From the NCBI RefSeq assembly GCF_000014265.1, contig NC_008312.1:750001-782000 (forward strand): a stretch of DNA of 32,000 nucleotides. The letters are read 5' to 3'. The DNA is from Trichodesmium erythraeum IMS101 (GTDB taxonomy: Bacteria > Cyanobacteriota > Cyanobacteriia > Cyanobacteriales > Microcoleaceae). Shown in pieces: positions 6,593-25,223 of this stretch. The number at the start of each line of letters is the position of its first letter. Within the stretch, counting starts at the first letter, position 1. The notes beneath the pieces are model-generated. The model was not told the DNA's origin. It searched no databases and saw only the letters and a program-made list of their open reading frames with translations. The position numbers were made by a program, and so were the translations under genes.

Positions 6593-6618
6593 GAAAACGT
6601 CCTGAGAAATTAAGTAGT

Positions 6619-7539: not shown

Positions 7540-7620
7540 ATATTAAGTATATATATATCCAAGGATAGAAAAATCCGCTTATAATAAGTCTAATTACTAA
7601 GACTCTATTAAAACTGGAAA

Positions 7621-8259
7621 ATGGCATCCTCTTCTGTAGCTGTTCGAGAACTTCCCCTATTTCCCTTACCAGAAGTAGTATTATTTCCGGGTAGGCCATT
7701 ACCACTATATATCTTTGAATTTCGCTATAGAATTATGATGAATACAATTCTAGAGAGTGATAGTAGATTTGGAGTTATGATGTGGGACTCAACCCAAGAT
7801 CGAGTTGTGGCAACTGGATGCTGCGCTAGAATTGAGGATTATCAGCGTTTACCTGATGATCGAATGAAGATTTTAACTATAGGTGAGAAGAGATTTAGAG
7901 TTTTAGATACGGTTAGAGAAAAACCGTATTTAGTTGGTTTAGTTGAATGGATAGAAGATGCTCCTTCTGAAAAGGAGCTTAGAGAGTTAACAACAAAAGT
8001 TGATCTCTTACTGAAAGATGTAGTTCATCTTTCGGGAAAATTGATGGATCAGAGGATAGAGCTACCAGAAGATATTCCTAATTTACCTAAAGAATTATCC
8101 TACTGGGTAGCTAGTAATCTTTATGGTGTGGCGACAGAACAGCAAGCTCTTTTGGAGATGCAAGATACTGGTGCTAGACTAGAAAGAGAAGTAGAAATTC
8201 TCACTTCTACCCGCAATCATCTTGCAGCTAGAACTGTTCTTAAGGATACTTTAAATTGA
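7621..8259 (+). CDS. LON peptidase N-terminal (substrate-binding) domain protein, stand-alone
   Basis: 212 aa. ELPLFPLPEVVLFPGRPLPLYIFEFRYRIM...FGVMMWD...GCCARIEDYQRLPDDRMKILTIGEKRFRV matches the LON N-domain pattern (LPLFPL..VLFPG..LPL.IFE.RY). No AAA+ or protease domain follows. Confidence 0.8.
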   Translation: MASSSVAVRELPLFPLPEVVLFPGRPLPLYIFEFRYRIMMNTILESDSRFGVMMWDSTQDRVVATGCCARIEDYQRLPDDRMKILTIGEKRFRVLDTVREKPYLVGLVEWIEDAPSEKELRELTTKVDLLLKDVVHLSGKLMDQRIELPEDIPNLPKELSYWVASNLYGVATEQQALLEMQDTGARLEREVEILTSTRNHLAARTVLKDTLN

Positions 8260-8512
8260 CATTCTCTCAAAGTTACTTACTCTCAAAGTTGCTTAACTGC
8301 AAAACCTAATGTTTTTTTTGATTGGACATCATCTCAATGCTGCTCTATGAGACAGCATTGAGGTAAAAAAATATACCAAATGGGTTTAGTTGGAACGTAT
8401 AAAGTAGAGTATTATATACTGTTTGTTAAACTGTAACATTGTTGGCAATTTCTTATGTAGATCCCGTGAGCTCTGAAGAAAAGTATAAATGCTAATACAT
8501 CAAACTTATGAA

Positions 8513-9103
8513 TTATATCCCTTGGCTACTAGGAGATAAAATAGGATAGTTTTTGTTCTTGATTAAGTCCTGGGTTTCATCATTAGCCCATTTATAATAA
8601 TCTAGTAATAATTGATGGGTTAATCTTTGTTTGATTGTCATTAATACACTTTTGAGTAAACTATTACCAGTTGTTTCTAAGACTGGTAATGGTGTCAACA
8701 ATAATGGAGGGGGTAATTCTACTTTAACTTCTAAATCAGCTTGACCTTTGAGATGAGTAACTCCTTTCAATTCTAGGGTATCAAGGATACCAACCAGATT
8801 CAGGTTAAAGCGTTGGTTTATATACTCTACACCACGAATTTCACATCTGTCTGACTTTAAGTAAATTTTGCCTTTAGTACTAGACCACAAGCGCATATCT
8901 ACAGTTGGTTGAATGCTTAACATCATAAAGTGTAGTGGACGCATTTTTAGGCGGAAACAATTTTGATCTAATTGCTCTAATCTTGTTGGGTCAACTAAAG
9001 CATTAACTAAGCGCTTTGGTTGACGAAGATAATGTTGAATAGGAACTTTTTGTTCTACTACAGGAATATCTACTGATTGTGAAGCAGTAAATTTACAAAT
9101 CAT
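8513..9103 (-). CDS. Conserved hypothetical protein, DUF1997-like
   Basis: 196-aa ORF with an ATG start. From memory, the sequence (HYLRQPKRLVNALVDPTRLEQLDQNCFRLKMRPLHFMMLSIQPTVDMRLW...) resembles the cyanobacterial/plastid DUF1997 family. The family assignment is unverified. Confidence 0.55.
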   Translation of the reverse strand: MICKFTASQSVDIPVVEQKVPIQHYLRQPKRLVNALVDPTRLEQLDQNCFRLKMRPLHFMMLSIQPTVDMRLWSSTKGKIYLKSDRCEIRGVEYINQRFNLNLVGILDTLELKGVTHLKGQADLEVKVELPPPLLLTPLPVLETTGNSLLKSVLMTIKQRLTHQLLLDYYKWANDETQDLIKNKNYPILSPSSQGI

Positions 9104-9139
9104 AATTTTAAAAAAAAATCAATAGCTGATAGCTAAAAT

Positions 9140-9181
9140 ATAATATTAATTAACATTGAAATAATATTAATTAACATTAAA
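9140..9181. repeat. 2 x 21-nt tandem duplication (1 mismatch)
   Basis: ataatattaattaacattgaa (9140-9160) is followed by ataatattaattaacattaaa (9161-9181), in the divergent spacer between the DUF1997-like gene and pheA. Confidence 0.85.
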
Positions 9182-9505
9182 GTTTGTTAATTTCATTAAT
9201 TTTATATTAAAGTATATAGTCAAGTTTGGTCAATAACTAACATTCAGATTTAGGTAAAATGGTAATATTGATTAATTAATTCTCATAAATGATATTGCCT
9301 CACAAATGGGAAGTAAGTAAACAAATGTAATTTTATTTTGCAAAAATGTAAATTATTTGTACTTTGTAAAAATTTTGTTGGATGTAAAATTTCAAATAGA
9401 GTGAGGTTCTTATTCAAGGGGATAAAAAAAAGTCATTTTGGATTTTCTGGCCTCCGGTTTCAGTCAGAGGTACTCATAGCTGATAACTGATAACTTATAA
9501 CTGAA

Positions 9506-10396
9506 ATGACTATATCTATTGCACATCTTGGTCCTGCTGGAACTTATACAGAAACGGCAGCAGTGGCATTTTCTGAAAAACTGGGCCAGCATGGTCAAAA
9601 ATCTATTCTGTGTCCGTACCCTAGTATTGCTCAAACTTTATCGGCAGTTTCTCAAGAGCAAGTGAATTTGGCAGTTGTACCTGTAGAAAATTCTATTGAA
9701 GGAAGCGTTACTGTTACTTTAGATACGCTTTGGAAACTGGATATTTTAGAAATTCAAACAGCATTAGTCTTACCTATTTCTCATGGGTTGATATCACTAG
9801 CTACTAGTTTTGAGGAGATTAAAATTGTTTATTCTCATCCACAAGCTTTAGCTCAATGTCAAGGTTGGCTAGAAAAGTTTTTACCGCAAGTAAAGCAAGT
9901 TCCAGCTAATTCTACTACAGAAGCATTAGAGCATTTGGAAAAAGAGCGGAGTGCCGGAGCGATCGCTTCTCATAGAGCTGCTAAAATTTATAAATTACCT
10001 GTATTAGCTTATCCAATTAATGATTATTCTGATAATTGTACTCGCTTTTTGGTATTGAAAAAAGGATGTACAGAAATGGAAAATTCAGCTTTTAAACTAA
10101 TAATTAATACAAGAGATAAGCCAGAAAATTTAGTTTTTACTTCTTTAGGTTTTACTGTACCTGCAAATGAACCTGGAGCTTTAGTTAAACCATTGCAAGT
10201 ATTTGCTAAAAGGGAGATTAATATGAGTAGAATAGAATCTCGTCCAACAAAACTATCTCTAGGTGATTATTTATTTTTTATTGATATAGAAGCTAATATT
10301 AATCATAATTCTGTTAAGGTAGCGATAGAAGAATTAAAAACCTATACACAAACCCTTAAAATTTTTGGCAGTTATATTCTTATGTCTATCAATTAA
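9506..10396 (+). CDS. pheA: Prephenate dehydratase
   Basis: 296 aa. The N-terminus is IAHLGPAGTYTETAA, the catalytic-domain motif is TRFLVL, and the ACT-domain region has PGALVKPLQVFAKREINMSRIESRPTK. This is the typical PDT + ACT architecture. Confidence 0.9.
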   Translation: MTISIAHLGPAGTYTETAAVAFSEKLGQHGQKSILCPYPSIAQTLSAVSQEQVNLAVVPVENSIEGSVTVTLDTLWKLDILEIQTALVLPISHGLISLATSFEEIKIVYSHPQALAQCQGWLEKFLPQVKQVPANSTTEALEHLEKERSAGAIASHRAAKIYKLPVLAYPINDYSDNCTRFLVLKKGCTEMENSAFKLIINTRDKPENLVFTSLGFTVPANEPGALVKPLQVFAKREINMSRIESRPTKLSLGDYLFFIDIEANINHNSVKVAIEELKTYTQTLKIFGSYILMSIN

Positions 10397-10467
10397 TAGT
10401 GATTAGTATTTAATTACCAGTTTGGTTTTGTGATCTTTCCTGACTGTTGATCATAAATATATTCTAT

Positions 10468-10505
10468 ATATCTAAATACTTTCCTAATATCTAAATACTT
10501 TCCTA
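10468..10505. repeat. Perfect 2 x 19-nt tandem duplication
   Basis: atatctaaatactttccta occurs at 10468-10486 and again at 10487-10505, in the convergent spacer between pheA and the giant gene. Confidence 0.9.
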
Positions 10506-10872
10506 TTTTATATTTTTTTTTAAAATCAATGCTTCGGTTTATTTAGTTGTTATCCTATATCTCTATATACCCATTAATATATTATACCACTTTAAAAAGA
10601 AGAATGCATTTTATGGTCGTGTATTTTGATAAAAGTAGCTGAAAAATATCAAGCACTGTGGCAATTTATTTGAGACAGGTACATCGAGCATTTTTCGCTT
10701 TTTTCCAAAATTTACTAAAATCTCGCTCTTTCTTCTAGCCTCGAAACTAGGGAGGTTCTACATAAGGTCTCTACAATTTGGAATAAATATTTATTATGTT
10801 TTTTAGCGCCAGGATATATAGCAAAAATTCCTGATATTTAGTATTACTATTTCTTCTTTTTTACTAACTAAT

Positions 10873-13800
10873 TTAGATTATATTTTGCAGCGTAACTAGC
10901 AGACGTTGAATTTGTTTTTCCCAAGTTAAATCTTGCATAAAATTCACAGCAGCATTACTCTTAAGTTTAGCATTTTTTGGATCTGAATATACTTTTTCTA
11001 ACATTTCAACTACTTCTTCAACATCAGATTCCCCCCAACCTTCTACACCTGGAAAAAGAGGGGTAGGTTTGACAGATTTTTGACAACGTAGTGGATAACA
11101 ATGAGAGTCATTAATAATATCTAAATGCCCGGTATTAGCAGAAATAATTGTTGGAATACCACAGGCAAGACTTTCCATTGCTACGAGATTTGTACCCCCT
11201 TCACAACGATTTGTAAATACAGCAACATCAGCTTCTCGTAATATTTGTCCAACCATATAATTGGGAATAATACCGACATCAATAACTGCACTGCTAGGAA
11301 TATCATTTTCTAGCAACCATTGAGTAATTTGTAAATGTTTATTTGGACTAATTTTAGGTAGTCCAACAACATTTCCAGTTTGCTCAATTCCTGCCATAAA
11401 TTGAGGCCAAAAATTATGCCAAGCTGTAATTAATAGTGCTTCTGGATGACGTTTTTGGAAAATTTTAAAAGCTGCTATAACAATATCTTGACCTTTGCGA
11501 TATTCTAGTTTTCCACCAGAAAAAATAACAAAGCGATCGCTAAAAGTATTAGATTTAGGTGCTGGATGAAAAATGGTTTGATCGATACCTTGTAAAACTT
11601 TTTGTAGAGGTTTTATACCATTACTTTCTAAAACATTAGTATTCCAAGTAGAACCTGTAATAATCAAATTGTATGCTTGGGCACGATTTATTTGTTCTGA
11701 AGTAAATTTAGTATTTTCTGAGAAAATAATTCCAATATTTTGGGTGCCTATAAGATTGTTACTAATAGAAAAATTACTATTTAATGCTTGTAATATTGGC
11801 AAGTTTACTTGCAATTTTTTACCTTGTTGATTCTTGAGTTGATTTTGCAAATTTTTTTGCTCATTAAAAGCTGGATTTAGTAAAGCTTGATGGAGAGGGT
11901 TTAAGGTTCCAGGTTGAATGGAAGGAGGTGTTAATAGTAGGGGTTTATATCCTGGGGTTTGAAGTAGTTGGAGAGTAAGATTAATGCCATAAATACCCCA
12001 GCCAGTATGATGGTTTAACGGCCAGTTAATAGCAATTATTTTGATGATTTCCGAAGTAGATTTTTTTGAATGTTCGGGTTCTTTGATATTACTATTAGTT
12101 GCTGGAATTAAACCTTGAGTTTGTAGATTTTTGGGAGAATTTATGAAGGTAGACGAAGGCGTGTTTTTTGGTAGTTTACTAGATTTATATTGTGCTAAAG
12201 CTTTTTGAATGGCTTCTTCTGGCAATTTAATAGCCGTTCTTTCAGAAATTTTATTGGTTGGAGAATTATGTTCTAGTAAATTTTCTAAGCTCTCTTTAAC
12301 TTGCTTCAATACACTATTCCAATATCCTATTTTTGCCTGTCTAAATAATCTCATTGTCGGATACCAAGGACTATCTTTGCGGTCTGTTAACCACCGCCAG
12401 TCAGAATCAAAATTTAACATTACCCAAACAGGTTTACCTAATGCTCCTGCTAAGTGAGCAATAACTGTATCTATTGTAATTACTAAATCTAATTGTTTTA
12501 TGACTGCTGCTGTATCAGTTAGGTCATTAAAAGATGAGCTTAAATTATGTATTTGAGTTTGAGATTTTAACCATTCATTATCTGCGACTGAGACTTCTTT
12601 TTGTAAAATATAAAAGTTAACTGTATCTATATTGATAATTTCTTCTAAATATTCAACCGGACAAGAGCGTCTTTGACTAGTTTTAATAGTACTACTTGTT
12701 TGCCAACATATTCCTACTTTGAGATTGTTTTCTGGAGCAAGTGGAATGGGAAAGTCGATTGATTTTGGTACAGATAAATAAGGAATTTCAGTAGGTATAG
12801 TTTCTAGAGTAGTTTGGAAAATTCGAGGTAGGCTCATCAATGGAATTTGCAGGTCAAAATCTGGCAATTTTTCACCTTTAACAAATAATTCATCTATTTC
12901 TGAAACTGTAGTAAATAATAATTTTAATCCAGCTTGATTACATTCAACAATTACACGGCCTCCTAATTTTTTTACCAGAGGAATATAGCGGATAAATTGA
13001 ATAGAATCTCCTAAACCTTGTTCTGTATAAATGAATAAAGTTTTTCCTGGAAAATTTGAGCCATCCCATACAGGTTGACCAAAACTACGAGTTTCATAAT
13101 CTTGACGTTTGCACCGCCATTCATATTCAGAAAATCCTTGAATAAAATCTCCCTGTTTTAGAAAAATTAAGCTGAAACCAAAGTGAGCATCAATATAATT
13201 CGGTCTGATACTCAGAGCTTTTTGATAGCAACGAATTGATTCTGTAATTTCACCTTTACCTTTAAATATTTGCCCTAAATTATGCCAAGCTTCAGCATAA
13301 TTTGGTTTCCTAGAGAGCGCTTTTTGATTATGAATAATTGCTGCATTAAATTTATGCTGATTTTTCAGAGCAATAGCTAGATTAAGATATGTTTGTTCAT
13401 TATTCGGATTTAAGCTAATTGCTTTTTGACAATAAGTAATAACTAGATTAGTTTTATCTGTTTTTTGGGCACATAAACCAAGTATTTCAAAAGCACCAGC
13501 AACATCCGGTTTATCTTGAATAATTAGATGGCATATCTGCTCTGCTTCTTCAAAGTTTCCAGCTTTATATTTTTCTAAAGCAGTTTGGAGTAATTTACTA
13601 TAATTATTGACTGTTTTTTTGAGCTTATTAGATGTGTATTTTCCTAGAGCTTTCTTGACTCCAGATTCTGGTAATTTGAGACTTATAATTCTGGATTTTT
13701 TTTCGACATGGGCAGCATTTTCTACTAAATCTATTAGACTATTTTTAATTTGTTTAATTATACTATGCCAATCTCCTATTTTTGCCTGTCTAAATAATCT

Positions 13801-16800
13801 CATTGTCGGATACCAAGGACTATCTTCCCGGTCTGTTAACCAGCGCCAGTTAGAATCAAAATTTAACATTACCCAAACAGATTTACCTAATGCTCCTGCT
13901 AAGTGAGCAATAACTGTATCTATTGTAATTACTAAATCTAATTGTTTTATAGCTGCTGCTGTATCAGCTAGGTCATTAAAAGATGAACTTAAATTATGTA
14001 TTTTAGTTTGAGATTTCAGCCATTCATTATCTGCGACTGATACTTCTTTTTGCAAAATATAAAAGTTGACTGTATCTATATTGATAATTTCTTCTAAATA
14101 TTCAACTGGACAAGAACGTCTTTGACTGGTTTCGGTGGTACTACTTGTTTGCCAACATATTCCTAATTTAAGATTGTTTTCTGGAGCAAGTGGAATAGGA
14201 AAGTCAATTGATTTTGGTACAGATAAGTAGGGAATTTCAGTAGGTATAGTTTCCGGGGTAGTTTGTAAAATTCGAGGTAGACTCATCAATGGAATTTGGA
14301 GGTCAAAATCTGGTAATTTTTCACCTTTAATAAATAATTCGTCTATTTCTGAAACCGTGGTAAATAATAATTTTAATCCGGCTTGATTACATTCAACAAT
14401 TACACGGCCTCCTAATTTTTTCACCAAAGGAATATAGCGGATAAATTGAATAGAATCTCCTAAACCTTGTTCTGTATAAACTAATAAGGTTTGACCCGGA
14501 AAATTAGAACCATCCCACACAGGTTGAGATAAATTACGACCGATAAAACCTTGAGTTTTCCACCGCCATTCATATTTAGAAAAACCGGGGATAAAATTTC
14601 CCTGTTTAAGTAAAGCGTTTGCTAAACCAAAATGAGCATTTACATGATTTGTGTTTAGTTCAATAGCTTGTTCATAATATTTTTTAATAGCTTGTTCATA
14701 ATATTTTTGAGATTCAGCAAGTTTTCCTAATTGGAAAAAAATATAGCCTAAGGAATGATTTGCCTCAATATAATCTGGATTTAGCTCAAGAGATTTTTGA
14801 CAATATTCAATTGCCAACTCAAATTGACCTTGTTTTTGCAAAATATTCCCTAGTCTACACCATGCTTCGGCATGATTAGGGTGAATTTCAATTGCCTTTT
14901 GATAATAGGTATTCGCCTTTGGTAAGTTTCCATTTTTTTCCCACACAAAGCCTAAATTAATATTGATCCATGAGCTGTTAGGATTAATTTTTCTAGACTT
15001 TTTATAGTTAATAATTGCTAAATCAATTTGACCTTTTTGTAAAAAAATCCATCCTAAACTTGAGTAGTTACTACTATTATTCGGTTCCAGTTCAATAGCT
15101 TTTTGATAATGAGCGATCGCCTCTTCTAAACGACCTTCTTTTTTCATTAGTTTGGCTAAGTTTGAATAAGCTTTAGTGAAGCCAGGATTCAAATTAATAA
15201 CTTGATTCAAAAGCTGAATTGCTATGTCATTTCTACCTGCTAAATTTTCTAGTACAGCTAATAAATTGAGTACCTGAAAATCTTGAGGTTTTTCTTCAAG
15301 TATTAGACGGCATATTCTTTCTGCTTCTACTAAATTATTTTGTTGATAATATTGATATGCATTCTCAAAATTTGCTGGTAAATCTGGTAAATTTTTCTGA
15401 GATTCTATAAATTCCATTAATGCTTCTTTTACCTCAATAAGTACACTATTCCAATCTCCTCTTTTTGGCTGTCTAAATAATCGTGCTGTGGGATACCAAG
15501 GACTATCATTTCTATCTAACATCCATCGCCAGTCAGGTACAAAAGGTAATAATATCCACACAGGTTTACCTAATGTTCCTGCTAAATGTGCTACTGCTGT
15601 ATCAACAGTAATTACTAAGTCAAGTTTAGTAATAATTCCAGCAGTATCAGCAAAGTCATTTAGCTGACTACTTAAATCTAATATAGGCAATGTTTTTAAT
15701 AATTTAAGATCTACTCCAGGTTCTTTTTGCAGACTATAAAAACTTACTCCTGCTACGTCTAAAAGATACTGAAAATTCATTAATTTACAAGAGCGTTTAA
15801 CAGCAGTTGGACTGTCCTGGTTTGTCATCCAAACAATACCAACTTTCAAGTAATTTCTTTCTGGAGATTCTAATTTTATCGACGGAATTTCAGGTATGTT
15901 TAAATTTTTAATTGGTGGAGGAATATTGTCTAAAGTAGTACCAAAAATACGAGGCAATTCTAACAATGGTGCATTAACATCAAAAGTCAAATTTACTATT
16001 TCTTCTAAACATTGCTCAATTTCAGGAATTTTTTCGAGCAATCTAACTAAAGGTTTTTGACAAGCTAGAGTTATGCGCGCTCCCTGTTTTTTAACCAATG
16101 GAATATAACGGATAAATTGAATTGTATCGCCATATCCTTGTTCGGCATAAATAAGGATTTTTTTACCTTCTAAGTTCGACCCATCCCAAAGCTTTTCTGG
16201 CTGTATTAAAAATAGAGCTTTACTAGCTTGCCAACGCCAATTATATTCTTGGAACCCTAACTTTAAATCTCCAAGAAGTAGCCAAACTAAGCTTAAATTT
16301 AGATGTACTTCAGGAAAATTTGGTTCTAGTTCAAGAGCTTTTTGATAAGAGGCAATACTGGCAGTGAAATTTCCTTCTTCCTCAAAAGTAACTCCCAAAC
16401 TATTGTGTGTCATTGCATAATCTGGATTTAGCTCAAGGGATTTTCTAAAATATTCAATTGCTAACTCAATTTGACCTTGTTTTCGCAAAACAACCCCTAA
16501 ATTGCACCATGCTTCGGCATAATTAGGGTTAATTTCAAGGGCCTGTTGATAATAGTTACTTGCCTTTGATAAGTTCCCCTTTTCTTGAAAGACAAATCCT
16601 AAATTATTGTATGCCTGAGCATAATCTGGATTTAGCTCAAGGGATTTTCTAAAATATTCAATTGCTAACTCAATTTGACCTTGTTTTAGCAAAATAACCC
16701 CTAAATTGCACCATGCTTCGGCATAATTAGGGTTAATTTCAAGGGCCTGTTGATAATAGTTACTTGCCTTTGATAAGTTCCCCTTTTCTTGAAATATTAA

Positions 16801-19800
16801 TCCTAAATTATTGTGTGCCTGAGCATAATCTGGCTGTAAATTAATTGCTTTTTGATAATAGGTGCTTGCCTTTGATAAGTCTCCCTTTTCTGCCCAAGCA
16901 AAGCCTAAATTGAAGTTTCCTTGTGAGTTATTAGGATTAATTTCTATAGACTTTTCAGAGTTAATAATTGCTGACTCAATTTGACCTTTTTCTAAAAAAA
17001 TAAATCCTAAATTTGAATAGTTACTACTATTATTTGGTTCCAGAGAAATAGCTTTTTGATAATGAGCGATCGCCTCTTCTAAACGACCTTCTTTTTTCAT
17101 TAGTTTGGCTAAGTTTGAATAAGCTTCAGTGAAGCCAGGATACAGATTAATAACTTGATTCAAAAGCTGAATTGCTATGTCATTTCTACCTGCTAAATTT
17201 TCTAGTACAGCTAATAAATGAAGTACCTGAAAATCTTGAGGTTTTTCTTCAAGTATTAGACGGCATATTCTTTCTGCTTCTACTAAATTATTTTGTTGAT
17301 AATATTGATATGCATTCTCAAAATTTGCTGGTAAATCTGGTAAATTTTTCTGAGATTCTATAAATTCCATTAATGCTTCTTTTACCTCAATAAGTACACT
17401 ATTCCAATCTCCTATTTTTGGCTGCCTAAATAATCTCATTGTTGGATACCAAGGACTATCTTTGCGGTCTGTCAACCAGCGCCAGTCAGAATCAAAATTT
17501 AACATTACCCAAACAGGTTTACCTAATGCTCCTGCTAAGTGAGCAATAACTGTATCTATTGTAATTACTAAATCTAATTGTTCTATAGCTGCTGCAGTAT
17601 CAGTTAGGTCATTAAAAGATGAACCTAAATTATGTATTTTAGTTTGACATTTCAGCCATTCATTATCTGCTACTGATACCTCCTTTTGTAAAGCATAAAA
17701 GTTGACTGTATCTATATTAATAATTTCTTCTAAATATTCAACTGAGCAAGAACGTACTTGACCGGTTTCATTGGTACTACTTGTTTGCCAGAATATTCCT
17801 ACTTTAAGATTATTTTCTGGAGAAAGTGGAATGGGAAAATTGATTGACTTTGGTACAGATAAATAAGGAATTTCTCCAGGTATAGTTTCTAGGGTAGTTT
17901 GGAAAATTCGAGGTAAACTCATCAATGAAATTTGAAAGTCAAAATCTGGTAATTTTTCACCTTCAACAAATAACTCATCTATTTCTAAAACCGTAGTAAA
18001 TAATAATTTTAATCCTGGTTGATTACATTCAACAATTACACGACCTCCTAATTTTTTTGCCAAAGGAATATACCGGATAAATTGAATAGAATCTCCTAAA
18101 CCTTGTTCTGTATAAATTAATAAAGTTTTCTCAGCAAAATTAGACCCATCCCATGTAGATTTTGCAAAACTACGAGTTATATAATCTTGACGTTGACAGC
18201 GCCATTCATATTCAGAAAATCCTACTAACAAATCTCCTTGTTTAAGAATAATAAATCCTCTAGCAAAGTGAGCATTGATATGATTAGGATTTAACTCAAT
18301 ACATTTTTCATAAAGAACTTTTGCTTCTGTTAAATTACCCTGTTGTTTCAGAATATTAGCCCAAGAGTAATAAATATAAGTATTATTTGGTTGAATCTCT
18401 AGAGATTTTTGATAACAACAAATTGCTTCTGGAATATTGCCTTGAATCTTAAATATTACACCTAAATTATGCCAACCAGAAGCCTCATTTGGTTTCAGTT
18501 CAATTGCTCTTTGATTATGAACTATTGCCTCGTCTAGTTTTTGTTGTTTTTTCAGAACAATAGCTAACCCTAAATGAGTTTTATAATTATTAGGGTTGAG
18601 GTTAATTGCTTTCTGATAGTAAACAATTGCTAAATCAATTTTGTCCGTTTTTTTTGCACACAGAGCAAGTATCTCAAATGCACTAGTACAATTGGGTTGC
18701 TTTTGAATAATAAAGTGACATATTTCCTCTGCTTCTTTCCAGTTTTCTACCTGATATTTTTCTAAAGCTATTGTCAGTAAGTCCTGAGTTGTAACTGATA
18801 ATCCTGGTTTAATTATTGATGGATAATCTGTCTTTTCATATTTATAAAAAGTCAGTAATTTAGAATATAAAGCACCAAAAACTTCTTGAGAAACTCCTTG
18901 CCAATCTCCCATTTTTTTCTGTCTAAATAATCTCATTGTTGGATACCAAGGACTATCTTCACGGTCTATTAACCAACGCCAATCAGAATCAAAATTTAAC
19001 ATTACCCAAACAGGTTTACCTAATGCTCCCGCTAAGTGAGCAATAACTGTATCTATTGTAATTACTAAATCTAATTCTTTTATGACTGCTGCTGTATCAG
19101 CTAGGTCATTAAAAGATGAACTTAAATTATGTATTTTTGTTTGAGAATTCAGCCATTCCAAATCTTCAGGAGAAACTTTTTTTTGTAAAATATAAAACTT
19201 AGCGTTATCTACATTTAAAATAGATTGTAAATCTTTAACAGAACAAGAACGTTTTTTGCTAGTCTTGGTTTGGCTATCTGTTTTCCAGGCTATACCGATT
19301 TTGAAACTATTGACAGTTTCTAAAAATTGATTTTTTTTTGATTCTGGTACAAATAAATAAGGAATTTCAGTAGGTATATTCTCTAGGTTAGTACCAAAAA
19401 TTCGAGGTATGCTCATTAATGGAATTTGTAGGTCAAAATCTGGGAATTTTTTACCGATAACAAACAATTCATCTATTTCTGAAACCGTAGTAAATAATAA
19501 TTTTAATCCATCTTTATTACATCCAACAATTACACGGCCTCCTAATTTTTTTACCAAAGGAATATAACGTATAAATTGAATAGAATCTCCTAAACCTTGT
19601 TCGGTATAAACTAATAAAGTTTTCCCTGGAAATTTTGATCCATCCCATACAGGTTGAGAAAAGCTATGATTTATATAATCTTGACGTTTACAGCGCCATT
19701 CATATTCAGAAAAACCTTGCATCAAACTTCCCTGTTTAAGCAAAACAGCAGCTAAACCAAAGTGAGCATTGAGATAATTTTTATCTAGTTTAAGAGCTTC

Positions 19801-20310
19801 TTGATAATACTTTTGTGATTCCGAAAGTTTTCCCAGCTCTAAAGATATAGTACCTAAACTATGATATACTTCAGCATTATTTGGTTTAATTTCAAGAGAT
19901 TTTTGATAATGCTCAATAGCTGCCTCAAATTGGCCTTTATCTCGCAAAATAAGTCCTAAGTTATGCCATGCCTCAGCATAATTAGGACACAATTTAATAG
20001 CGATTTTACAGTGACGAAGGGCAGCATCAATTTGCTGATTATCTTGAAGTGCAACAGCCAAATTATTATGAGTTTCTGCATAATTATAATTAACTTTTAA
20101 AGATTTTTGATAATAAGCGATCGCCTGTTCTATTTGATTGTTTTTATAAGCACATAACCCTAAAAGTTCTAAAACTAAAAAATTATTCGGTTGTCTTTTT
20201 ATAATCTTATGACAAATGTTTATTGTCTCTTCCCAGTTTCCAGATTGATATTTTTTAAAGGCTTGTTTAATTTCACCATCATCAAATTTGATGTCCATAG
20301 GCTTTGACAT
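10873..20310 (-). CDS. Giant multidomain protein: five tandem [TPR array + GT9-like (heptosyltransferase-fold) glycosyltransferase] modules plus a C-terminal GT4 (group 1) glycosyltransferase domain
   Basis: Uninterrupted 3,155-codon frame. The track start is TTG at 20340, and I used the first ATG at 20310 (MSKPMDIKF). Each module has 34-aa TPR-type repeats followed by ~300 aa with GT9-like signatures: EQG(L/Y)GD(S/T)IQFIRYIPL at the start of the domain, and DLVIT(I/V)DT(V/A)(I/V)AHLAG(A/T)LGK(P/S)VW(V/I)(M/L)L...(D/N)WRW...DSPWYPT(M/A)RLFRQ at its end. Numbering from the TTG, the RLFRQ-type module ends fall at aa 469-474, 968-973, 1619-1624, 2180-2185 and 2663-2668. The last ~390 aa (nt 10873-12048) look like a GT-B/GT4 domain with EGGTNLVAMESLACGIP (E-x7-E). 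I recognised no signal peptide or TM segment. Confidence 0.85.
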   Translation of the reverse strand: MSKPMDIKFDDGEIKQAFKKYQSGNWEETINICHKIIKRQPNNFLVLELLGLCAYKNNQIEQAIAYYQKSLKVNYNYAETHNNLAVALQDNQQIDAALRHCKIAIKLCPNYAEAWHNLGLILRDKGQFEAAIEHYQKSLEIKPNNAEVYHSLGTISLELGKLSESQKYYQEALKLDKNYLNAHFGLAAVLLKQGSLMQGFSEYEWRCKRQDYINHSFSQPVWDGSKFPGKTLLVYTEQGLGDSIQFIRYIPLVKKLGGRVIVGCNKDGLKLLFTTVSEIDELFVIGKKFPDFDLQIPLMSIPRIFGTNLENIPTEIPYLFVPESKKNQFLETVNSFKIGIAWKTDSQTKTSKKRSCSVKDLQSILNVDNAKFYILQKKVSPEDLEWLNSQTKIHNLSSSFNDLADTAAVIKELDLVITIDTVIAHLAGALGKPVWVMLNFDSDWRWLIDREDSPWYPTMRLFRQKKMGDWQGVSQEVFGALYSKLLTFYKYEKTDYPSIIKPGLSVTTQDLLTIALEKYQVENWKEAEEICHFIIQKQPNCTSAFEILALCAKKTDKIDLAIVYYQKAINLNPNNYKTHLGLAIVLKKQQKLDEAIVHNQRAIELKPNEASGWHNLGVIFKIQGNIPEAICCYQKSLEIQPNNTYIYYSWANILKQQGNLTEAKVLYEKCIELNPNHINAHFARGFIILKQGDLLVGFSEYEWRCQRQDYITRSFAKSTWDGSNFAEKTLLIYTEQGLGDSIQFIRYIPLAKKLGGRVIVECNQPGLKLLFTTVLEIDELFVEGEKLPDFDFQISLMSLPRIFQTTLETIPGEIPYLSVPKSINFPIPLSPENNLKVGIFWQTSSTNETGQVRSCSVEYLEEIINIDTVNFYALQKEVSVADNEWLKCQTKIHNLGSSFNDLTDTAAAIEQLDLVITIDTVIAHLAGALGKPVWVMLNFDSDWRWLTDRKDSPWYPTMRLFRQPKIGDWNSVLIEVKEALMEFIESQKNLPDLPANFENAYQYYQQNNLVEAERICRLILEEKPQDFQVLHLLAVLENLAGRNDIAIQLLNQVINLYPGFTEAYSNLAKLMKKEGRLEEAIAHYQKAISLEPNNSSNYSNLGFIFLEKGQIESAIINSEKSIEINPNNSQGNFNLGFAWAEKGDLSKASTYYQKAINLQPDYAQAHNNLGLIFQEKGNLSKASNYYQQALEINPNYAEAWCNLGVILLKQGQIELAIEYFRKSLELNPDYAQAYNNLGFVFQEKGNLSKASNYYQQALEINPNYAEAWCNLGVVLRKQGQIELAIEYFRKSLELNPDYAMTHNSLGVTFEEEGNFTASIASYQKALELEPNFPEVHLNLSLVWLLLGDLKLGFQEYNWRWQASKALFLIQPEKLWDGSNLEGKKILIYAEQGYGDTIQFIRYIPLVKKQGARITLACQKPLVRLLEKIPEIEQCLEEIVNLTFDVNAPLLELPRIFGTTLDNIPPPIKNLNIPEIPSIKLESPERNYLKVGIVWMTNQDSPTAVKRSCKLMNFQYLLDVAGVSFYSLQKEPGVDLKLLKTLPILDLSSQLNDFADTAGIITKLDLVITVDTAVAHLAGTLGKPVWILLPFVPDWRWMLDRNDSPWYPTARLFRQPKRGDWNSVLIEVKEALMEFIESQKNLPDLPANFENAYQYYQQNNLVEAERICRLILEEKPQDFQVLNLLAVLENLAGRNDIAIQLLNQVINLNPGFTKAYSNLAKLMKKEGRLEEAIAHYQKAIELEPNNSSNYSSLGWIFLQKGQIDLAIINYKKSRKINPNSSWININLGFVWEKNGNLPKANTYYQKAIEIHPNHAEAWCRLGNILQKQGQFELAIEYCQKSLELNPDYIEANHSLGYIFFQLGKLAESQKYYEQAIKKYYEQAIELNTNHVNAHFGLANALLKQGNFIPGFSKYEWRWKTQGFIGRNLSQPVWDGSNFPGQTLLVYTEQGLGDSIQFIRYIPLVKKLGGRVIVECNQAGLKLLFTTVSEIDELFIKGEKLPDFDLQIPLMSLPRILQTTPETIPTEIPYLSVPKSIDFPIPLAPENNLKLGICWQTSSTTETSQRRSCPVEYLEEIINIDTVNFYILQKEVSVADNEWLKSQTKIHNLSSSFNDLADTAAAIKQLDLVITIDTVIAHLAGALGKSVWVMLNFDSNWRWLTDREDSPWYPTMRLFRQAKIGDWHSIIKQIKNSLIDLVENAAHVEKKSRIISLKLPESGVKKALGKYTSNKLKKTVNNYSKLLQTALEKYKAGNFEEAEQICHLIIQDKPDVAGAFEILGLCAQKTDKTNLVITYCQKAISLNPNNEQTYLNLAIALKNQHKFNAAIIHNQKALSRKPNYAEAWHNLGQIFKGKGEITESIRCYQKALSIRPNYIDAHFGFSLIFLKQGDFIQGFSEYEWRCKRQDYETRSFGQPVWDGSNFPGKTLFIYTEQGLGDSIQFIRYIPLVKKLGGRVIVECNQAGLKLLFTTVSEIDELFVKGEKLPDFDLQIPLMSLPRIFQTTLETIPTEIPYLSVPKSIDFPIPLAPENNLKVGICWQTSSTIKTSQRRSCPVEYLEEIINIDTVNFYILQKEVSVADNEWLKSQTQIHNLSSSFNDLTDTAAVIKQLDLVITIDTVIAHLAGALGKPVWVMLNFDSDWRWLTDRKDSPWYPTMRLFRQAKIGYWNSVLKQVKESLENLLEHNSPTNKISERTAIKLPEEAIQKALAQYKSSKLPKNTPSSTFINSPKNLQTQGLIPATNSNIKEPEHSKKSTSEIIKIIAINWPLNHHTGWGIYGINLTLQLLQTPGYKPLLLTPPSIQPGTLNPLHQALLNPAFNEQKNLQNQLKNQQGKKLQVNLPILQALNSNFSISNNLIGTQNIGIIFSENTKFTSEQINRAQAYNLIITGSTWNTNVLESNGIKPLQKVLQGIDQTIFHPAPKSNTFSDRFVIFSGGKLEYRKGQDIVIAAFKIFQKRHPEALLITAWHNFWPQFMAGIEQTGNVVGLPKISPNKHLQITQWLLENDIPSSAVIDVGIIPNYMVGQILREADVAVFTNRCEGGTNLVAMESLACGIPTIISANTGHLDIINDSHCYPLRCQKSVKPTPLFPGVEGWGESDVEEVVEMLEKVYSDPKNAKLKSNAAVNFMQDLTWEKQIQRLLVTLQNII
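14662..14709. repeat. In-frame 2 x 24-nt tandem duplication inside the giant gene
   Basis: aatagcttgttcataatattttt(t/g) occurs twice with 23/24 identity. It encodes KYYEQAIK|KYYEQAIE in module 4. Confidence 0.9.
15065..15470. repeat. Copy A of a ~406-nt near-identical direct repeat inside the giant gene (partner at 17018-17423)
   Basis: Collinear with 17018-17423 at a constant offset of 1,953 nt (651 codons, in frame), with only scattered mismatches by eye. It encodes ...GDWNSVLIEVKEALMEFIESQKNLPDLPANFENAYQYYQQNNLVEAERICRLILEEKPQDFQVL... Confidence 0.9.
16417..16824. repeat. 2 x 204-nt near-perfect tandem repeat (68 aa, two TPRs) inside the giant gene
   Basis: 16417-16620 and 16621-16824 differ at only a few positions. 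They encode QEKGNLSKASNYYQQALEINPNYAEAWCNLGV(I/V)L(L/R)KQGQIELAIEYFRKSLELNPDYA twice. A partial third start follows (ataatctgg at 16825). Confidence 0.92.
17018..17423. repeat. Copy B of the ~406-nt direct repeat (partner at 15065-15470)
   Basis: See copy A. Together the two copies bracket exactly one module (module 3). Confidence 0.9.
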
Positions 20311-21177
20311 TTTCTTTTGACAGTAATTATTCTCCAGCAATTTTTTTTAATTATCTTTCACACCTTAAAATAGATTTTCTCAATCTATAATTTTTGACCA
20401 AAAACTTAGGAATAGCAATTCTCAATTTTTATTTCTGTTATCCCCAAAAACTATAACCCAATATTTTGATTAATTAATTTAGTTCTAAATATTAAATTTT
20501 TAACTAAAGTTAACCCCATATAATTTTAGTTTTAATCTTGCTATTGGGAGTTTTTTTGATTTCTTCAACTATTAATAATTTTTACCCTAATTACTAGGCA
20601 CAAAAAAAACTAAAAATTATCGTAGCTGTGCCAGGTTATCCCATCAAACAAATAAACAAAAAAATGTGTTATAATAAAATAATAACCATATACATACTAT
20701 CAGTACATTGATCATAAAAAGGTCATAGTTAAAAATAGTATCAATGTCGATAAATATCTCAAATAAATTCCTATTTAATTGCAGTAAATATTAACCAACC
20801 CAAAGACATTCAAAACCTCGGAGTAAATAATCACCCAAAAGGTTTTCATATAACATTTTCTTCTAGGACTAGAAGCCTTTATAATTAGAGTCATTAAGTC
20901 AAAGGTTTTTTGATTTAAATAAATTCCTTTATTGAAATCAGTAGTAATTCTTTAGTGCTACATAAGTATTTAGATATAGTCTATAACGCACCAGCCCACT
21001 TTGCTATGGCTCAAATGATGATAATTTATGAATTGGCCTTTCAGGATAATTAATAAATTTATTGTGCTTACTGAGGATTTGGCAAAAATTCCCCAGTTAT
21101 ACTTATATTTATATCTTCCTCTCTATTTTTTGTAACCAAGAAACAGTTATACCCCCTTAGTAGGGGTTAAGGGGACA

Positions 21178-22169: not shown

Positions 22170-24218
22170 TTATTCTTCCGCTGTAACTGCCGAAGAACGA
22201 CGACGACGGCGACGAATTGGCCCAGAATCATCAGAGTCATTACTATCAGAATTCAAATCAACATCTGAATCACTCAAATCTAAATCATAGTTACCATTTT
22301 CCTCACGAACATCAAAATCATCATCTTGAGCAGAAGAAACAGATAAATCAAAATTATCTAATTCCTGATCATCATCATTTTCCTCATAGTCTGCAACTGA
22401 TTCAACTTCAACCTCTTCCTTATCTACCCTTGTTCTGCTCAAATGATTCTCTCCTTCCCCTGGTTGTTTAATAGAGATAATGACTGATTTAGGATTTTTT
22501 ACCATTCCCTCCTCTACAAGTGTTAATGGAGAAATACCCATCAAAGCATATACATCTTGTTCATCAAAAGTCATTTCTACCGTTACTATTTCTGGAGCTT
22601 CAGTAATGGGTCTAATTATCTCTCTTCCTGAACGTCTCGTATTACTTGTCAGAGAATATCCCTCCGAAAGGATAGGATACTCCATTCCCGATCCTAATTC
22701 TCTTTCATGCAATTCCAAACTCTCATCCTGCATTGTTTCACCAACCCCTACTCGACGACGACGACGACGACGAGTTTCCTGGTAACTAGGATGGTTCAAC
22801 AATTCCAAATCAGAAGCATTATTAGCATTCTCCCCTTCTTGATATCCTTGTCTAGTCTCCCAAGAATAGTTTTGAGCCACACCCACCAAAGTTGGAGGAG
22901 TAACAGCTACAGGTTTAGTTAATTCCTCAGCATCTACATTTCGATTAACCACAGACAAATTAACATCCCCAATAGATACTTCAGATTCACCAGGTAAATG
23001 AACTAAATGTCCTAATCCATTACAACTAGGACAATTACGACCAAATAGCTCATATATATTTTGACCTTGGCGTTTGCGAGTCAATTCGACTAAACCCAAT
23101 TCTGACAACTGAGCTATCTGAGGCCTAGCTTTATCAGCTCTGAGAACTTGATTAAAATGTTCCAGAACTTGCAGTTGGTCTCGTCGTGAGTCCATGTCGA
23201 TAAAATCAACAATAATAACTCCTGCAATGTTACGTAGGCGTAGTTGACGGGCTATTTCCGTAGCCGCTTCACAATTTGTCCAAAGTACAGTTTCCCGAGC
23301 TGTAGCAGACCGTGTAAAAGAACCAGAGTTGACATCTATAACAGTTAGTGCTTCAGTTGGTTGGATAATAACATAACCACCAGAAGGTAAATCTACTCTT
23401 GGTCTGAGAGCTTCTCTAATCGCAGCATTCACCCGGAAGTATTCTAGAATAGGGATGCGATCGCCATGATGGTCAATTAAAACTTGCAATGGTTTACCCC
23501 CACTCCAGTTGAGCAAATGTTGCTTGACTCGCTTCACTCCCTCACTATAGTCCACTACAATTCGATTAACATCAGTACTATACATATCCCGCAGTACCCG
23601 TTGAATAAAATCATTATCACGATTTAGTAGTGCAGGAGCTCTGTTAGAATTAGCTTCAATTTGGATTATTTCCCATTGTTGCTGCAAAACCTCTAAATCT
23701 TCCAGAATTGCCTCTTCTTCCATACCTTCTGCTTCAGTACGAACTAACAGGCCCATACCTGCTGGTTTGATTAAAATTGCCAACGCTCTAAGACGATTTC
23801 GTTCACTCTCAGAACTAATACGCCTTGATAGATTTACACCCCTTCCATAAGGCATCAAAACTAAATAACGACCTGGTAGGGTTATATTACCTGTTAAACG
23901 TGGTCCTTTTGTACCAGTGGGTTCTTTCATCACTTGCACTAAGACTTTTTGTTGGGGTGTAAGTAGTTCTGTAATTGCACCAGAGGATCGTTTCAATCGC
24001 AATGGGCCTAAATCACTGACATGAATAAATCCATTGCGCTCAGGATCTCCAATATTGACAAAAGCTGCATCTATTCCAGGTATTACGTTTTCTACGGTTC
24101 CGAGATAGATATCACTAACTTGATGGCTACCTTTAGCAACAACAAGTTCTTGTATTTGGTCTTCAGAAAATACGGCGGCAATTCTGTGCTGTTCAGCGAT
24201 AATTATTTGCTTCGGCAT
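22170..24218 (-). CDS. rne: Ribonuclease E (Rne/Rng family), cyanobacterial type
   Basis: 682 aa. The N-terminal S1 and catalytic region (IYLGTVENVIPGIDAAFVNIG...; VIDVNSG...; IIVDFIDM) is followed by a low-complexity C-terminal half with Arg runs (RRRRRRV, RRRRRRSSA) and an acidic D/E/S/N tract. The ATG at 24218 is preceded by AGGAGG. Confidence 0.93.
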   Translation of the reverse strand: MPKQIIIAEQHRIAAVFSEDQIQELVVAKGSHQVSDIYLGTVENVIPGIDAAFVNIGDPERNGFIHVSDLGPLRLKRSSGAITELLTPQQKVLVQVMKEPTGTKGPRLTGNITLPGRYLVLMPYGRGVNLSRRISSESERNRLRALAILIKPAGMGLLVRTEAEGMEEEAILEDLEVLQQQWEIIQIEANSNRAPALLNRDNDFIQRVLRDMYSTDVNRIVVDYSEGVKRVKQHLLNWSGGKPLQVLIDHHGDRIPILEYFRVNAAIREALRPRVDLPSGGYVIIQPTEALTVIDVNSGSFTRSATARETVLWTNCEAATEIARQLRLRNIAGVIIVDFIDMDSRRDQLQVLEHFNQVLRADKARPQIAQLSELGLVELTRKRQGQNIYELFGRNCPSCNGLGHLVHLPGESEVSIGDVNLSVVNRNVDAEELTKPVAVTPPTLVGVAQNYSWETRQGYQEGENANNASDLELLNHPSYQETRRRRRRRVGVGETMQDESLELHERELGSGMEYPILSEGYSLTSNTRRSGREIIRPITEAPEIVTVEMTFDEQDVYALMGISPLTLVEEGMVKNPKSVIISIKQPGEGENHLSRTRVDKEEVEVESVADYEENDDDQELDNFDLSVSSAQDDDFDVREENGNYDLDLSDSDVDLNSDSNDSDDSGPIRRRRRRSSAVTAEE

Positions 24219-24261: not shown

Positions 24262-25223
24262 TTATAAAAATGTGGCGTTTTGACATTCTCCCCGGCCTAC
24301 AACTACGGAATTCCTAGCGAGCTGAAGCTCTTCGGCGAATTGACGTGCATGCTTACGCAAGTGCGCTAACAATATGGTCGGTGCTACCTTGGCGGTAGTC
24401 TGACCCTTCCTTCCACGTCTGTTTTTTGTCTCCATTTCTCTTTCCTTTCACGATCTAAAAAACGTTTTGCTGCGCGAAATGAAAAGCGAATATCCTCTAC
24501 AAGAAACAACTCATCCGTAGGATGCCTGCCCAAGGAACAACTAATATATTTGTGACTGCATTTTTATCACGGTAATATTTACTACCGCAATTCAAATCTT
24601 CTCATTCTCGCTCCTGAAAGGTCTAACTTTCCACCTAAAAACCCACAATAATAGTGGGTTTGATATGCTGCTTCCCATCTATTAATTACCCTAAAATAAC
24701 GACGGTATTTTTCCCTTTTTCTTTCTAGAAATGTTCGGAATTGTCCCTAACTTAGATCGCTAATTGCCTTGGATAATTGACTATGTTTTGGTGCGTTTTT
24801 CCTTGCAACTATTATTATTGCAAGGTTGCACCACTTCTTGAGCATTTCAGACACATTAGAAACTTCCAGTACAATTATTTGGTTGTAGTTAATAATACTG
24901 GTTAATAACTTATGCAGAAAGTCATATCTTGTATCTTTAAGTTGATTATGAAATTTAGTAACTTTCAATCTAGCTTTTTCGTACCGTTTGGAACCTAAGC
25001 ATTTTTTAAATAATGACTTACTCTGTAATATATACTTCTTAATTAGTTTCTTCAAAGGTTTTGGTGCATCTATTTTTTTACTATTACTTAAAGTAGTAAA
25101 AGTTTTGATGCCTAAATCTATATCTACTGAATTATCAGTTTGAGGTAATAATTCTCGATTAATTTCTACCAAGCTATAATACCTTATGGAATCATGGAAA
25201 AAAGATTTTTGTAAATAAGCCAT
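24262..25223 (-). pseudogene. tnpB: Decayed IS200/IS605-family tnpB (OrfB / IS1341-type) remnant, N-terminally truncated and frame-disrupted
   Basis: The ORF 24747..25223 carries IDLGIK (RuvC-I-like) and KARLKVTKFHNQLKDTRYDFLHKLLTSIINYNQIIVLEVSNVSEM (RuvC-II-like E). Further downstream on the - strand, other frames read GQFRTFLERKREKYRRYFRVINRWEAAYQTHYYCGFLGGKLDLS, then CGSKYYRDKNAVTNILVV (degenerate Zn-finger / HDRD-NAA-NI region), then ...EELQLARNSVVVGRGECQNATFL* ending at 24262. Stops and frameshifts separate these pieces. About 150 N-terminal codons are missing. Confidence 0.75.

Follow-up and report, generated by a model that had tools for sequence, protein, structure and literature searches.

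Cytoplasmic glycosylation of proteins in bacteria is known from a handful of systems, namely OGT-like enzymes, FlmG, Maf, HMW1C, TibC/AAH and EarP. Among these, HMW1C is GT41-like and lacks a canonical array of tetratricopeptide repeats (TPRs). In FlmG (596 aa), a TPR part is joined to a glycosyltransferase (GT) domain of the GT-B type; the TPRs bind flagellin and the GT-B part sets the donor (PMC7591256; bioRxiv 10.1101/2022.03.25.485807). TibC is, according to PDB entry 4rap, a GT9-related enzyme that heptosylates an autotransporter, and in Synechococcus elongatus a TPR-containing Ogt is reported to be necessary for pilin glycosylation. Here we analysed a 9.4-kb gene of the cyanobacterium Trichodesmium erythraeum IMS101, which lies in a 32,000-nucleotide stretch (contig NC_008312.1, positions 750,001 to 782,000; hereafter 'the window') and combines five modules of TPRs plus a GT9-like domain with a sixth, GT4-type domain. 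We rate its product as a TPR-guided cytoplasmic GT like those above, but with a GT9-like catalytic domain that is arrayed in tandem and fused to a dedicated GT4. Based on gene contexts, fold models and architecture, we give a probability of roughly 0.6 to the reading that this giant gene encodes a machine which glycosylates proteins.

The gene forms a single uninterrupted open reading frame (ORF), as a preliminary description, made from the sequence alone, had stated without naming the strand; the ORF is on the minus strand and runs from TTG to TAA (Table 1). At a G+C content of ~32% in the window, a random frame would by our own arithmetic stop every ~13 codons, so that 3155 open codons are beyond chance. 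In the orthologue from Dapis, which has Ile at codon 11, the first ATG aligns with codon 15 of the window ORF. Translation therefore probably begins at this ATG (first base 20298), which would yield a product of 3141 aa. The 9.4-kb gene is real and intact. Within the giant protein we detected neither a hydrophobic segment nor a signal peptide (maximum 19-residue Kyte-Doolittle score 1.58). It should therefore be soluble and cytoplasmic, and we rejected a membrane or secreted protein for want of a hydrophobic segment.

A motif search of the protein recovered EQGxGD, AHLAG, DSPWYP and RLFRQ exactly five times each and regularly spaced. This matches the earlier view of a two-part module, a TPR array followed by a domain of ~300 aa, that is repeated five times. 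GT9-like copies 1, 2, 4 and 5 are 72-89% identical to each other at the protein level versus 46-52% between copy 3 and the other four, so the divergence of module 3 had been recognized correctly. The corresponding DNA identities are 84-93%, and 67% for copy 3. We rejected collapsed exact repeats, since the copies are 7-33% diverged at the DNA level. Pairwise dN/dS values between copies (0.28-0.51) indicate selection that is purifying, though not stringent. Among themselves, the TPR arrays share 34-57% identity, except for arrays 3 and 4, which reach 77% because of a conversion tract. As the GT9-like domains 3 and 4 are only 46% identical, mosaic recombination must have occurred. Two direct repeats of ~390 nt (tracts A and B), 97-98% identical and 1953 nt apart, flank module 3 and contain the longest exact internal repeat of the gene (192 nt). 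They bear the signature of recent gene conversion or duplication, and modules are likely to be lost by way of such repeats; modules 3-4 are absent from Dapis. We thus read the five copies as diverged paralogues with a recent conversion tract. A Lys/Ser-rich linker of ~40 aa precedes TPR array 5.

The preliminary description had assigned the repeated domain to the GT9-like enzymes with GT-B fold and had proposed to search each module separately with profile models. When each copy was scanned alone, PF01075 (GT9) was the only Pfam family with E<=0.01, but the scores straddle the gathering cut-off of 22 bits (Table 1). The matches span ~33 residues around DTxxAHLAG out of a 247-position model. 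A scan of the whole protein was dominated by TPR families, with PF01075 at 79.8 bits in four stretches, and among homologues PF01075 is precomputed on many and not on many others. In NCBIfam, the only matches were to heptosyltransferase I/III, far below cut-off, and there was no specific family. PDB searches at the sequence level, for which we used repeated-domain profiles as well as the GT4 domain, gave nothing meaningful, the sole match being interleukin-5 (E 0.9).

Structure prediction was more informative. We built an AlphaFold model of the copy 5 domain alone from a 105-sequence alignment; it predicts a two-lobe Rossmann-type (GT-B) fold (pLDDT 94.8, pTM 0.93). The top six Foldseek matches in the PDB are all GT9 enzymes, comprising 3tov from Veillonella (best, E 5e-9, TMq 0.59), WaaF (1psw), WaaC (2h1h and 2gt1) and TibC (4rap and 4rb4), with E values from 5e-9 to 1e-5 and TMq of 0.5-0.59. 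The family assignment of the preliminary description was thus borne out by the predicted structure. Rank 7 of the same search was 9grx_1, a 403-aa chain from the NDH-PSI-LHCI supercomplex of spinach (E 7e-6, TMq 0.54), so that a GT9-like fold is also present in a subunit of chloroplast NDH.

At the residue level, hhalign paired DTVIAHLAGALGKP with WaaC VD261T262GLSHLTAALDRP at a probability of 80%. The (Q)GxGD loop follows strand 1 at the site of WaaC SSMGD13, both in the model and in the sequence. We take WaaC Asp13 to be catalytic and equate the Asp of the GD pair with it. Both GxGD and DTxxAHLAG are invariant across the five copies. Among 76 positions that are conserved at >=90% in 100 homologues, copies 5, 1, 2, 3 and 4 keep 72, 71, 70, 67 and 70, respectively. 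Copy 3 lacks the P-Y of the IPYL motif, and copy 4 carries D255N and P245S at positions conserved in >=94% of the family. Hence the conservation of catalytic residues in all five copies, which the preliminary description had left to be checked, was found: GxGD, DT..H and 67-72 of the 76 conserved positions are retained throughout. The family has signature motifs of its own (EYEWRW, EQGxGDxIQFxRY, DWRW, DSPWYP and RLFRQ). Judged from the model, the repeated domain adopts a GT-B fold with GT9 as its nearest match; by its Pfam scores, it is a marginal member of the GT9 family.

We also modelled module 5 as a whole (aa 2250-2695, TPR plus domain; AlphaFold, pLDDT 95.7). In this model, ten helices, arranged as five pairs, are predicted to continue directly into the GT domain. 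The best PDB matches of the whole module are SPY (SPINDLY) and OGT with E values of 1e-13 to 1e-11. Since the TM-scores are low (0.3-0.4), the likeness is architectural and not a close superposition. At that level, the analogy to the TPR-GT fusion of OGT that had been drawn beforehand holds.

The last ~416 aa form the separate GT4-type domain that had been anticipated. PF00534 (Glycos_transf_1) scores 45.8 bits, well above the gathering cut-off of 26.4, followed by PF20706 (GT4-conflict; 39.6 versus 26) and PF13692 (Glyco_trans_1_4; 34.9 versus 27). The acidic pair typical of GT4 had been given as E-x7-E; its actual spacing is E-x8-E (E3047 and E3056). Both Glu residues are invariant in 90 aligned sequences, that is, the window protein and 89 homologues, and so is the surrounding NRxEGGTNLVAME. 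The domain thus resembles GT4 in passing the Pfam cut-off and in its C-lobe acidic pair, but it represents a distinct subfamily with the motifs NRxEGGTNLVAME and GGKLExRKGQD.

How widespread is this architecture? A profile search (HMMER) of 1.84 billion cluster representatives, each standing for a cluster at 50% identity, returned 46,501 proteins with the domain at E<=1e-3. The 150 best-scoring representatives include 148 with multiple copies (two copies in 18, three in 99, four in 23, five in 7 and six in 1), and at least 14 representatives carry 1-5 GT9-like copies together with the same C-terminal GT4. The single-module form (TPR plus domain, 450-530 aa) is extremely common, with at least 8000 candidates in a word-index search; many such proteins are named 'tetratricopeptide repeat-containing glycosyltransferase family protein' by NCBI. 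Two further single ORFs show the same order of five modules plus GT4. One of them, P0121 (3114 aa), stems from a metagenome-assembled genome (MAG) of the Oscillatoriales and is 38% identical to the window protein; the other, P0125 (3140 aa), is cyanobacterial and occurs on several contigs.

Scanning species genomes of GTDB with the GT4 domain yielded 39 loci, all of them cyanobacterial and mostly from Oscillatoriales (Trichodesmium, Okeania, Dapis, Hormoscilla, Laspinema, Phormidium, Oscillatoria, Microcoleaceae and Leptolyngbya). In the 28 loci that we analysed, 1-6 TPR-GT9-like modules almost always precede the GT4, either fused to it or as adjacent genes. Single-ORF forms occur in Laspinema (four modules plus GT4, 2457 aa) and Phormidium CCY1219 (2479 aa). 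Two ORFs share the modules in Dapis (two, then three plus GT4), Okeania SIO2B3 (three, then three plus GT4) and Hormoscilla (four, then two plus GT4), and in other loci the modules are adjacent single genes. The survey of domain architectures that had been suggested therefore gives n x (TPR-GT9-like) + GT4, with n = 1-6, across Oscillatoriales. The GT9-like and GT4 parts form a conserved partnership. Because the number of modules varies among relatives, it must be dynamic; recombination of one module with another would alter it, and from relative to relative the modules are fused or split. The five-in-one version lies at the upper end of the known range.

Closer relatives allow a direct comparison. 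A partial protein of Trichodesmium sp. St18_bin3 is 98% identical, a Trichodesmium MAG is 92% identical in the GT4 region, and Trichodesmium MAG_R02 encodes a shorter, partly truncated version. The Dapis gene is syntenic, with pheA and the LON-N gene downstream, and synteny with housekeeping genes is common to the Trichodesmium/Okeania/Dapis group. Between the window and the genome of the Dapis isolate, modules 1-2 as well as module 5 plus GT4 are colinear, in stretches of 3.7 kb and 2.3 kb. In Okeania sp. KiyG1 (BLZO01000052.1, 9968-21503) the locus is broken into at least eight ORFs; the frame changes several times, one piece is duplicated and a deletion precedes the GT4. It lies near the same radical-SAM and aminotransferase genes, which are arranged differently there; its break-up reflects either a decaying gene or assembly errors. 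An Okeania fragment of the domain-3 type is 68% identical to copy 3 versus ~40% to the other copies. Literature searches on TPR with GT9 or heptosyltransferase, cyanobacteria and Trichodesmium returned no paper on the domain family or its tandem arrays. The statement that the arrangement was not known as characterized is in line with this; its apparent singularity is not, as the architecture recurs in public data. The architecture exists and recurs, so this one gene does not stand alone.

Because the window itself gives no functional clue, we examined the gene contexts of relatives. Approximately 25 contexts were sampled by hand, and a pairing with genes of large secreted or filament proteins recurred in five phyla or more. 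At three loci, standalone GT4 homologues (42-47% identical) belong to flagellin-FliW-GT4 operons within flagellar clusters. One of these is annotated as Gemmatimonadales, and the other two share its gene order and have TPR-GT genes with Gemmatimonadales orthologues. In two of the three loci, the divergent neighbours encode two TPR plus GT9-like proteins (718 and 677/696 aa; E 1e-76 to 1e-107 with our profile of the domain), together with an FkbM-type methyltransferase and then another flagellin and FliD. In the completely sequenced Geomonas subterranea (CP077683.1, locus 3613-13010), a related GT4 gene (E 4e-48) lies between motAB and flagellin-FlbT-FlaF and is followed by three adjacent TPR genes with 2 + 1 + 2 GT9-like copies. 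This inventory of five GT9-like domains and one GT4 equals that of the Trichodesmium polypeptide, but unfused. The Geomonas island continues with several GT41 and GT2 TPR proteins and is an unusually dense flagellin-glycosylation island.

A second recurrent context is a cassette of an autotransporter, a TPR-sulfotransferase and a GT9-like gene in Ralstonia solanacearum, Thalassospira marina and Enterobacter sp. 638, which spans beta-, alpha- and gammaproteobacteria, respectively. It suggests a combined sulfation and glycosylation of the autotransporter passenger domain. The replicons that carry it include the Ralstonia PSI07 megaplasmid and pENTE01 of Enterobacter 638, and an alpha/beta hydrolase gene is often present. 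Filamentous-haemagglutinin (TpsA) genes adjoin family members in Pseudanabaena PCC 7367 and Caballeronia. In Caballeronia grimmiae (p1, 7498-9951), an 817-aa coding sequence annotated as a TpsB transporter (ShlB/FhaC/HecB) contains the GT9-like domain and is located downstream of a gene for filamentous haemagglutinin; either the fusion is genuine, although its topology would be odd, or the gene call is a merged one. An Arcobacter member adjoins a protein of ~8,500 aa, SapC, FkbM and a complete type I secretion system, and a member on pSYLB of Synechocystis 6714 is transcribed divergently from a 2459-aa choice-of-anchor Q protein. This Synechocystis member (8672-10915; 747 aa, 'TIGR03032 family') has its GT9-like domain at the C-terminus and not after a TPR array. 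FkbM genes stand beside members in Azospirillum, Arcobacter, the flagellin islands and ten cyanobacterial loci of the Laspinema/Oscillatoria group. The neighbours conserved in the cyanobacterial loci yielded no acceptor candidate; only housekeeping synteny and FkbM recurred there. The pairing with genes of large secreted or filament proteins matches the pattern of TibC/TibA, AAH/AIDA-I, HMW1C/HMW1 and FlmG/flagellin.

Compared with WaaC, WaaF and 3tov, the repeated domain shares the size (~300-350 aa), the two-lobe GT-B fold, DT-x2-(S/A)HL and a G-D loop after strand 1, and these enzymes are its best structural matches. However, the sequence likeness covers only ~30 residues, the domain is fused to TPRs and has its own signature motifs, and the gene contexts of its relatives are those of proteins rather than core loci of lipopolysaccharide (LPS). 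The autotransporter heptosyltransferases TibC and AAH (BAHTs) are likewise GT-B enzymes related to GT9. They act in the cytoplasm on a secreted protein and are encoded beside their autotransporter substrate; distant members of the present family also adjoin autotransporter genes, in Ralstonia, Thalassospira and Enterobacter. The fold search did retrieve TibC, but as no closer match than WaaC or WaaF, and BAHTs are single-domain dodecamers without TPRs. The Cys4 iron site of BAHTs finds no counterpart, as none of the columns that are invariant or conserved at >=90% in the alignment of 105 sequences is a Cys, and no autotransporter gene lies beside the giant gene in the window.

OGT and SPINDLY (GT41) share the N-terminal TPR superhelix joined directly to a GT-B part, and both act on cytoplasmic proteins, but they have one module per chain; the catalytic domain of the Trichodesmium protein is much smaller and has no intervening domain. 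None of the five domains matched PF13844 (Glyco_transf_41) at E<=1. As the domain-only fold search, too, returned GT9 and not GT41 enzymes, we rejected membership in GT41. FlmG of Caulobacter and Brevundimonas, which we compared by its published description, is of one-module size, with TPRs in the first 313 aa and a GT-B part of ~280 aa, and relatives of the present family are also found beside flagellin, FlbT and FlaF. Unlike the Trichodesmium protein, FlmG is a single module with no fused GT4, and it is described as confined to Caulobacterales; flagellar genes are absent from the window. HMW1C and EtpC are cytoplasmic GTs encoded with a two-partner-secretion adhesin, just as members of the present family adjoin TpsA/FHA genes, but HMW1C belongs to a different catalytic family than the GT9-like domain.

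From these comparisons we infer a protein acceptor, which is favoured over a polymer because of the gene context; the preliminary description had left a choice between a protein and a polymer substrate. Each TPR array would hold a protein acceptor, or one site on it, in front of its catalytic domain. The GT9-like domain would then transfer a sugar from a nucleotide sugar by means of the GxGD Asp and the DT..H nucleotide-sugar motif, and the GT4 would add a further sugar or extend the first. The methyltransferase of the FkbM type that often accompanies these genes elsewhere probably caps the glycan. Most likely, the five modules all catalyse one reaction, each on its own acceptor or site, and do not build an oligosaccharide stepwise, because four catalytic domains (1, 2, 4 and 5) are 72-89% identical while the TPR arrays, apart from arrays 3 and 4, share 34-57%. 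Of the two earlier suggestions, a multi-site enzyme is thus favoured, and an assembly line of different sugars is less likely. Since reports generally describe cyanobacterial LPS as free of heptose, ADP-heptose is an improbable donor. Candidate acceptors in Trichodesmium would be, as we presume, the oscillin-type or RTX-type surface glycoproteins of gliding Oscillatoriales, and pilins.

Among other explanations, we took most seriously that the six GT domains form a poly- or oligosaccharide synthase, which would build or decorate sheath or exopolysaccharide, an LPS-like core or a methylated oligosaccharide while the TPRs serve as a scaffold or for docking to export. We regard this as unlikely, though with a real share of the probability. 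GT9 and GT4 are classic families of glycan assembly and the best fold matches include WaaF and WaaC, but it is SPY and OGT, both protein-directed, that the architecture of the whole module matches. Islands in Azospirillum, with several TPR-GT genes accompanied by GT2, other GTs and methyltransferases and without an obvious protein substrate, would fit a synthase, as would the standalone GT4 of Hormoscilla that adjoins GT2 and methyltransferase genes; FkbM methyltransferases commonly methylate sugars. A capsule-polymerase multienzyme that contains TPRs (8qoy) is also among the whole-module matches. Against this, the giant protein has no membrane segment, Wzx/Wzy, ABC or synthase export genes adjoin neither the giant gene nor its relatives in the 28 cyanobacterial loci, and the recurring neighbours encode proteins, namely flagellins, autotransporters, TpsA and giant type I secretion substrates.

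It is much less probable that we are dealing with a largely non-catalytic or decaying repeat protein, be it pseudo-enzyme copies that act as scaffolds or an expanded array that is fragmenting. The fragmented Okeania KiyG1 locus and the partly truncated version of MAG_R02 are compatible with decay, but fragmentation in drafts and MAGs may be assembly error, and intact multi-module ORFs exist in many genera. Likewise, dN/dS of 0.3-0.5 denotes a moderate constraint only, and copies 3 and 4 have lost individual conserved positions; still, each copy keeps GxGD, DT..H and nearly all of the conserved positions, in a frame that stays open over 9.4 kb of AT-rich DNA. Even lower we place an assembly artefact in which five modules were mis-joined or mis-counted from one to three real genes, given that assemblers are confused by repeats of 85-98% identity. 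Tracts A and B with their exact repeat bracket module 3, and module number differs among related MAGs, both of which would fit such an error. Yet the modules differ at 7-33% of DNA positions in one frame with no stops, their order is partly backed by the two colinear stretches of the Dapis isolate, P0121 and P0125 are independent ORFs of the same layout, and Okeania contains a copy of the domain-3 type. We hence found nothing in favour of an artefact or a split gene, the outcome that the preliminary description had named as speaking against itself; divergence of the copies, the single frame, purifying selection and colinearity with Dapis all oppose it.

The reading of the giant gene as a protein-glycosylating machine has its own difficulties, and the following points weigh against it. 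Three of the five copies fall under the PF01075 gathering score, and the hhalign alignments to WaaC and WaaF are limited to the DT..H motif (31 residues at 80% probability for WaaC). GT9 enzymes classically act on lipid-linked LPS cores and not on proteins. Capsule polymerases, of which 8qoy is one, also use TPR arrays as oligomerisation scaffolds, and the faster divergence of the TPR arrays could perhaps just reflect a weaker constraint on repeats. The 32-kb window contains no acceptor candidate, no gene of a sugar-nucleotide pathway and no FkbM gene. No obvious substrate gene was seen at the Granulicella, Paroceanicella, Polaromonas and P0134 loci, and the contexts of P0121 and Poribacteria were likewise uninformative. 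Finally, cyanobacteria are not known to have flagella, so that the strongest evidence from gene context had to be taken from relatives that are distant (30-47% identical).

Table 1. Features of the giant gene of T. erythraeum IMS101 (positions in the window; aa numbered from the TTG codon of the ORF).
Feature	Position	Strand	aa	Remarks
Whole ORF	10873..20340	-		3155 codons; probable ATG start 20298
TPR array 1	19744..20295	-	16-199	~5-6 repeats; Pfam TPR families
GT9-like GT-B domain 1	18841..19743	-	200-500	EQGLGD, DTVIAHLAG; PF01075 23.5 bits
TPR array 2	18250..18798	-	515-697	~5-6 repeats
GT9-like domain 2	17341..18249	-	698-1000	PF01075 21.1 bits
Putative duplication/gene-conversion tract A	17023..17413	-		domain 2 end into TPR 3 start
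TPR array 3	16285..17340	-	1001-1352	~10 repeats; internal 204-nt tandem duplications
GT9-like domain 3	15391..16284	-	1353-1650	divergent copy; EQGYGD, IPYL -> IKNL; PF01075 21.7 bits
Putative duplication/gene-conversion tract B	15070..15460	-		domain 3 end into TPR 4 start
TPR array 4	14614..15390	-	1651-1909	~7-8 repeats; first ~100 aa near-identical to array 3 start
GT9-like domain 4	13705..14613	-	1910-2212	D255N, P245S; PF01075 17.4 bits
TPR array 5	13165..13593	-	2250-2392	five helix pairs in model
GT9-like domain 5	12256..13164	-	2393-2695	copy modelled; PF01075 23.5 bits
C-terminal GT4 domain	10876..12123	-	2740-3155	conserved core from ~2780; PF00534, PF20706

The immediate neighbours of the giant gene are housekeeping genes. 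On one side lie pheA, a DUF1997 gene, a gene for a LON N-terminal-domain protein and rpsJ; on the other side are rnhB, rne, a TnpB fragment and genes for a radical-SAM protein and an aminotransferase. Transporter or sugar-nucleotide genes do not flank the gene, in keeping with the preliminary description, nor are there Wzx/Wzy, ABC or synthase export genes beside it. The only ORF related to sugar metabolism in the window encodes 144 aa with a mannose-6-phosphate isomerase C-terminal/cupin domain (238-672, plus strand; PF01050, E 1.6e-50) and lies ~10 kb away from the giant gene, on its 3' side. The RNase E/G homologue (22170-24218, minus strand; PF10150) has a long acidic low-complexity C-terminal half and two RRRRRR runs. 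At 24747-25223 on the minus strand, a 158-aa fragment of an IS605 OrfB/TnpB-type transposase (PF01385, E 1e-19) is probably a remnant, since it is far shorter than full TnpB. Long AT-rich stretches (G+C 0.27-0.33) at 20341-21177, 28601-29542 and 30719-32000 are devoid of ORFs of convincing length. RNA features were detected nowhere in the window with Rfam at gathering thresholds and ARAGORN for tRNA.

Taken as a whole, the picture at the level of the family is a substantive and testable lead. Its most far-reaching form is one that we put forward tentatively, as less probable than not in its entirety. It would comprise a very large family of cytoplasmic protein GTs (~46,500 clusters), built from TPR and GT9-like cassettes that undergo shuffling, duplication, fusion and splitting and that act together with a dedicated GT4 and FkbM. 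In a wide range of phyla, its substrates would be flagellins, autotransporters, TpsA adhesins and giant proteins of type I secretion. Within it, the Trichodesmium protein would be a five-specificity array for several surface or secreted proteins of a nitrogen fixer of global importance, and FlmG maybe a narrow branch. Should proteins be its substrates, the TPR-GT9-like family would rank among the largest in cytoplasmic protein glycosylation. Culturable systems in which this is testable are the flagellin islands of Geomonas and Gemmatimonas and the autotransporter cassettes of Ralstonia and Enterobacter. A logic in which the TPRs specify the acceptor and the GT specifies the donor is attractive for glyco-engineering, as domain swaps in FlmG suggest, and tandem arrays would show how the acceptor range is widened by duplication of modules within a gene. 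For Trichodesmium and other Oscillatoriales, the giant gene would point to an unexplored glycosylation of surface proteins, which could bear on colony formation, gliding, phage resistance and interactions with particles.

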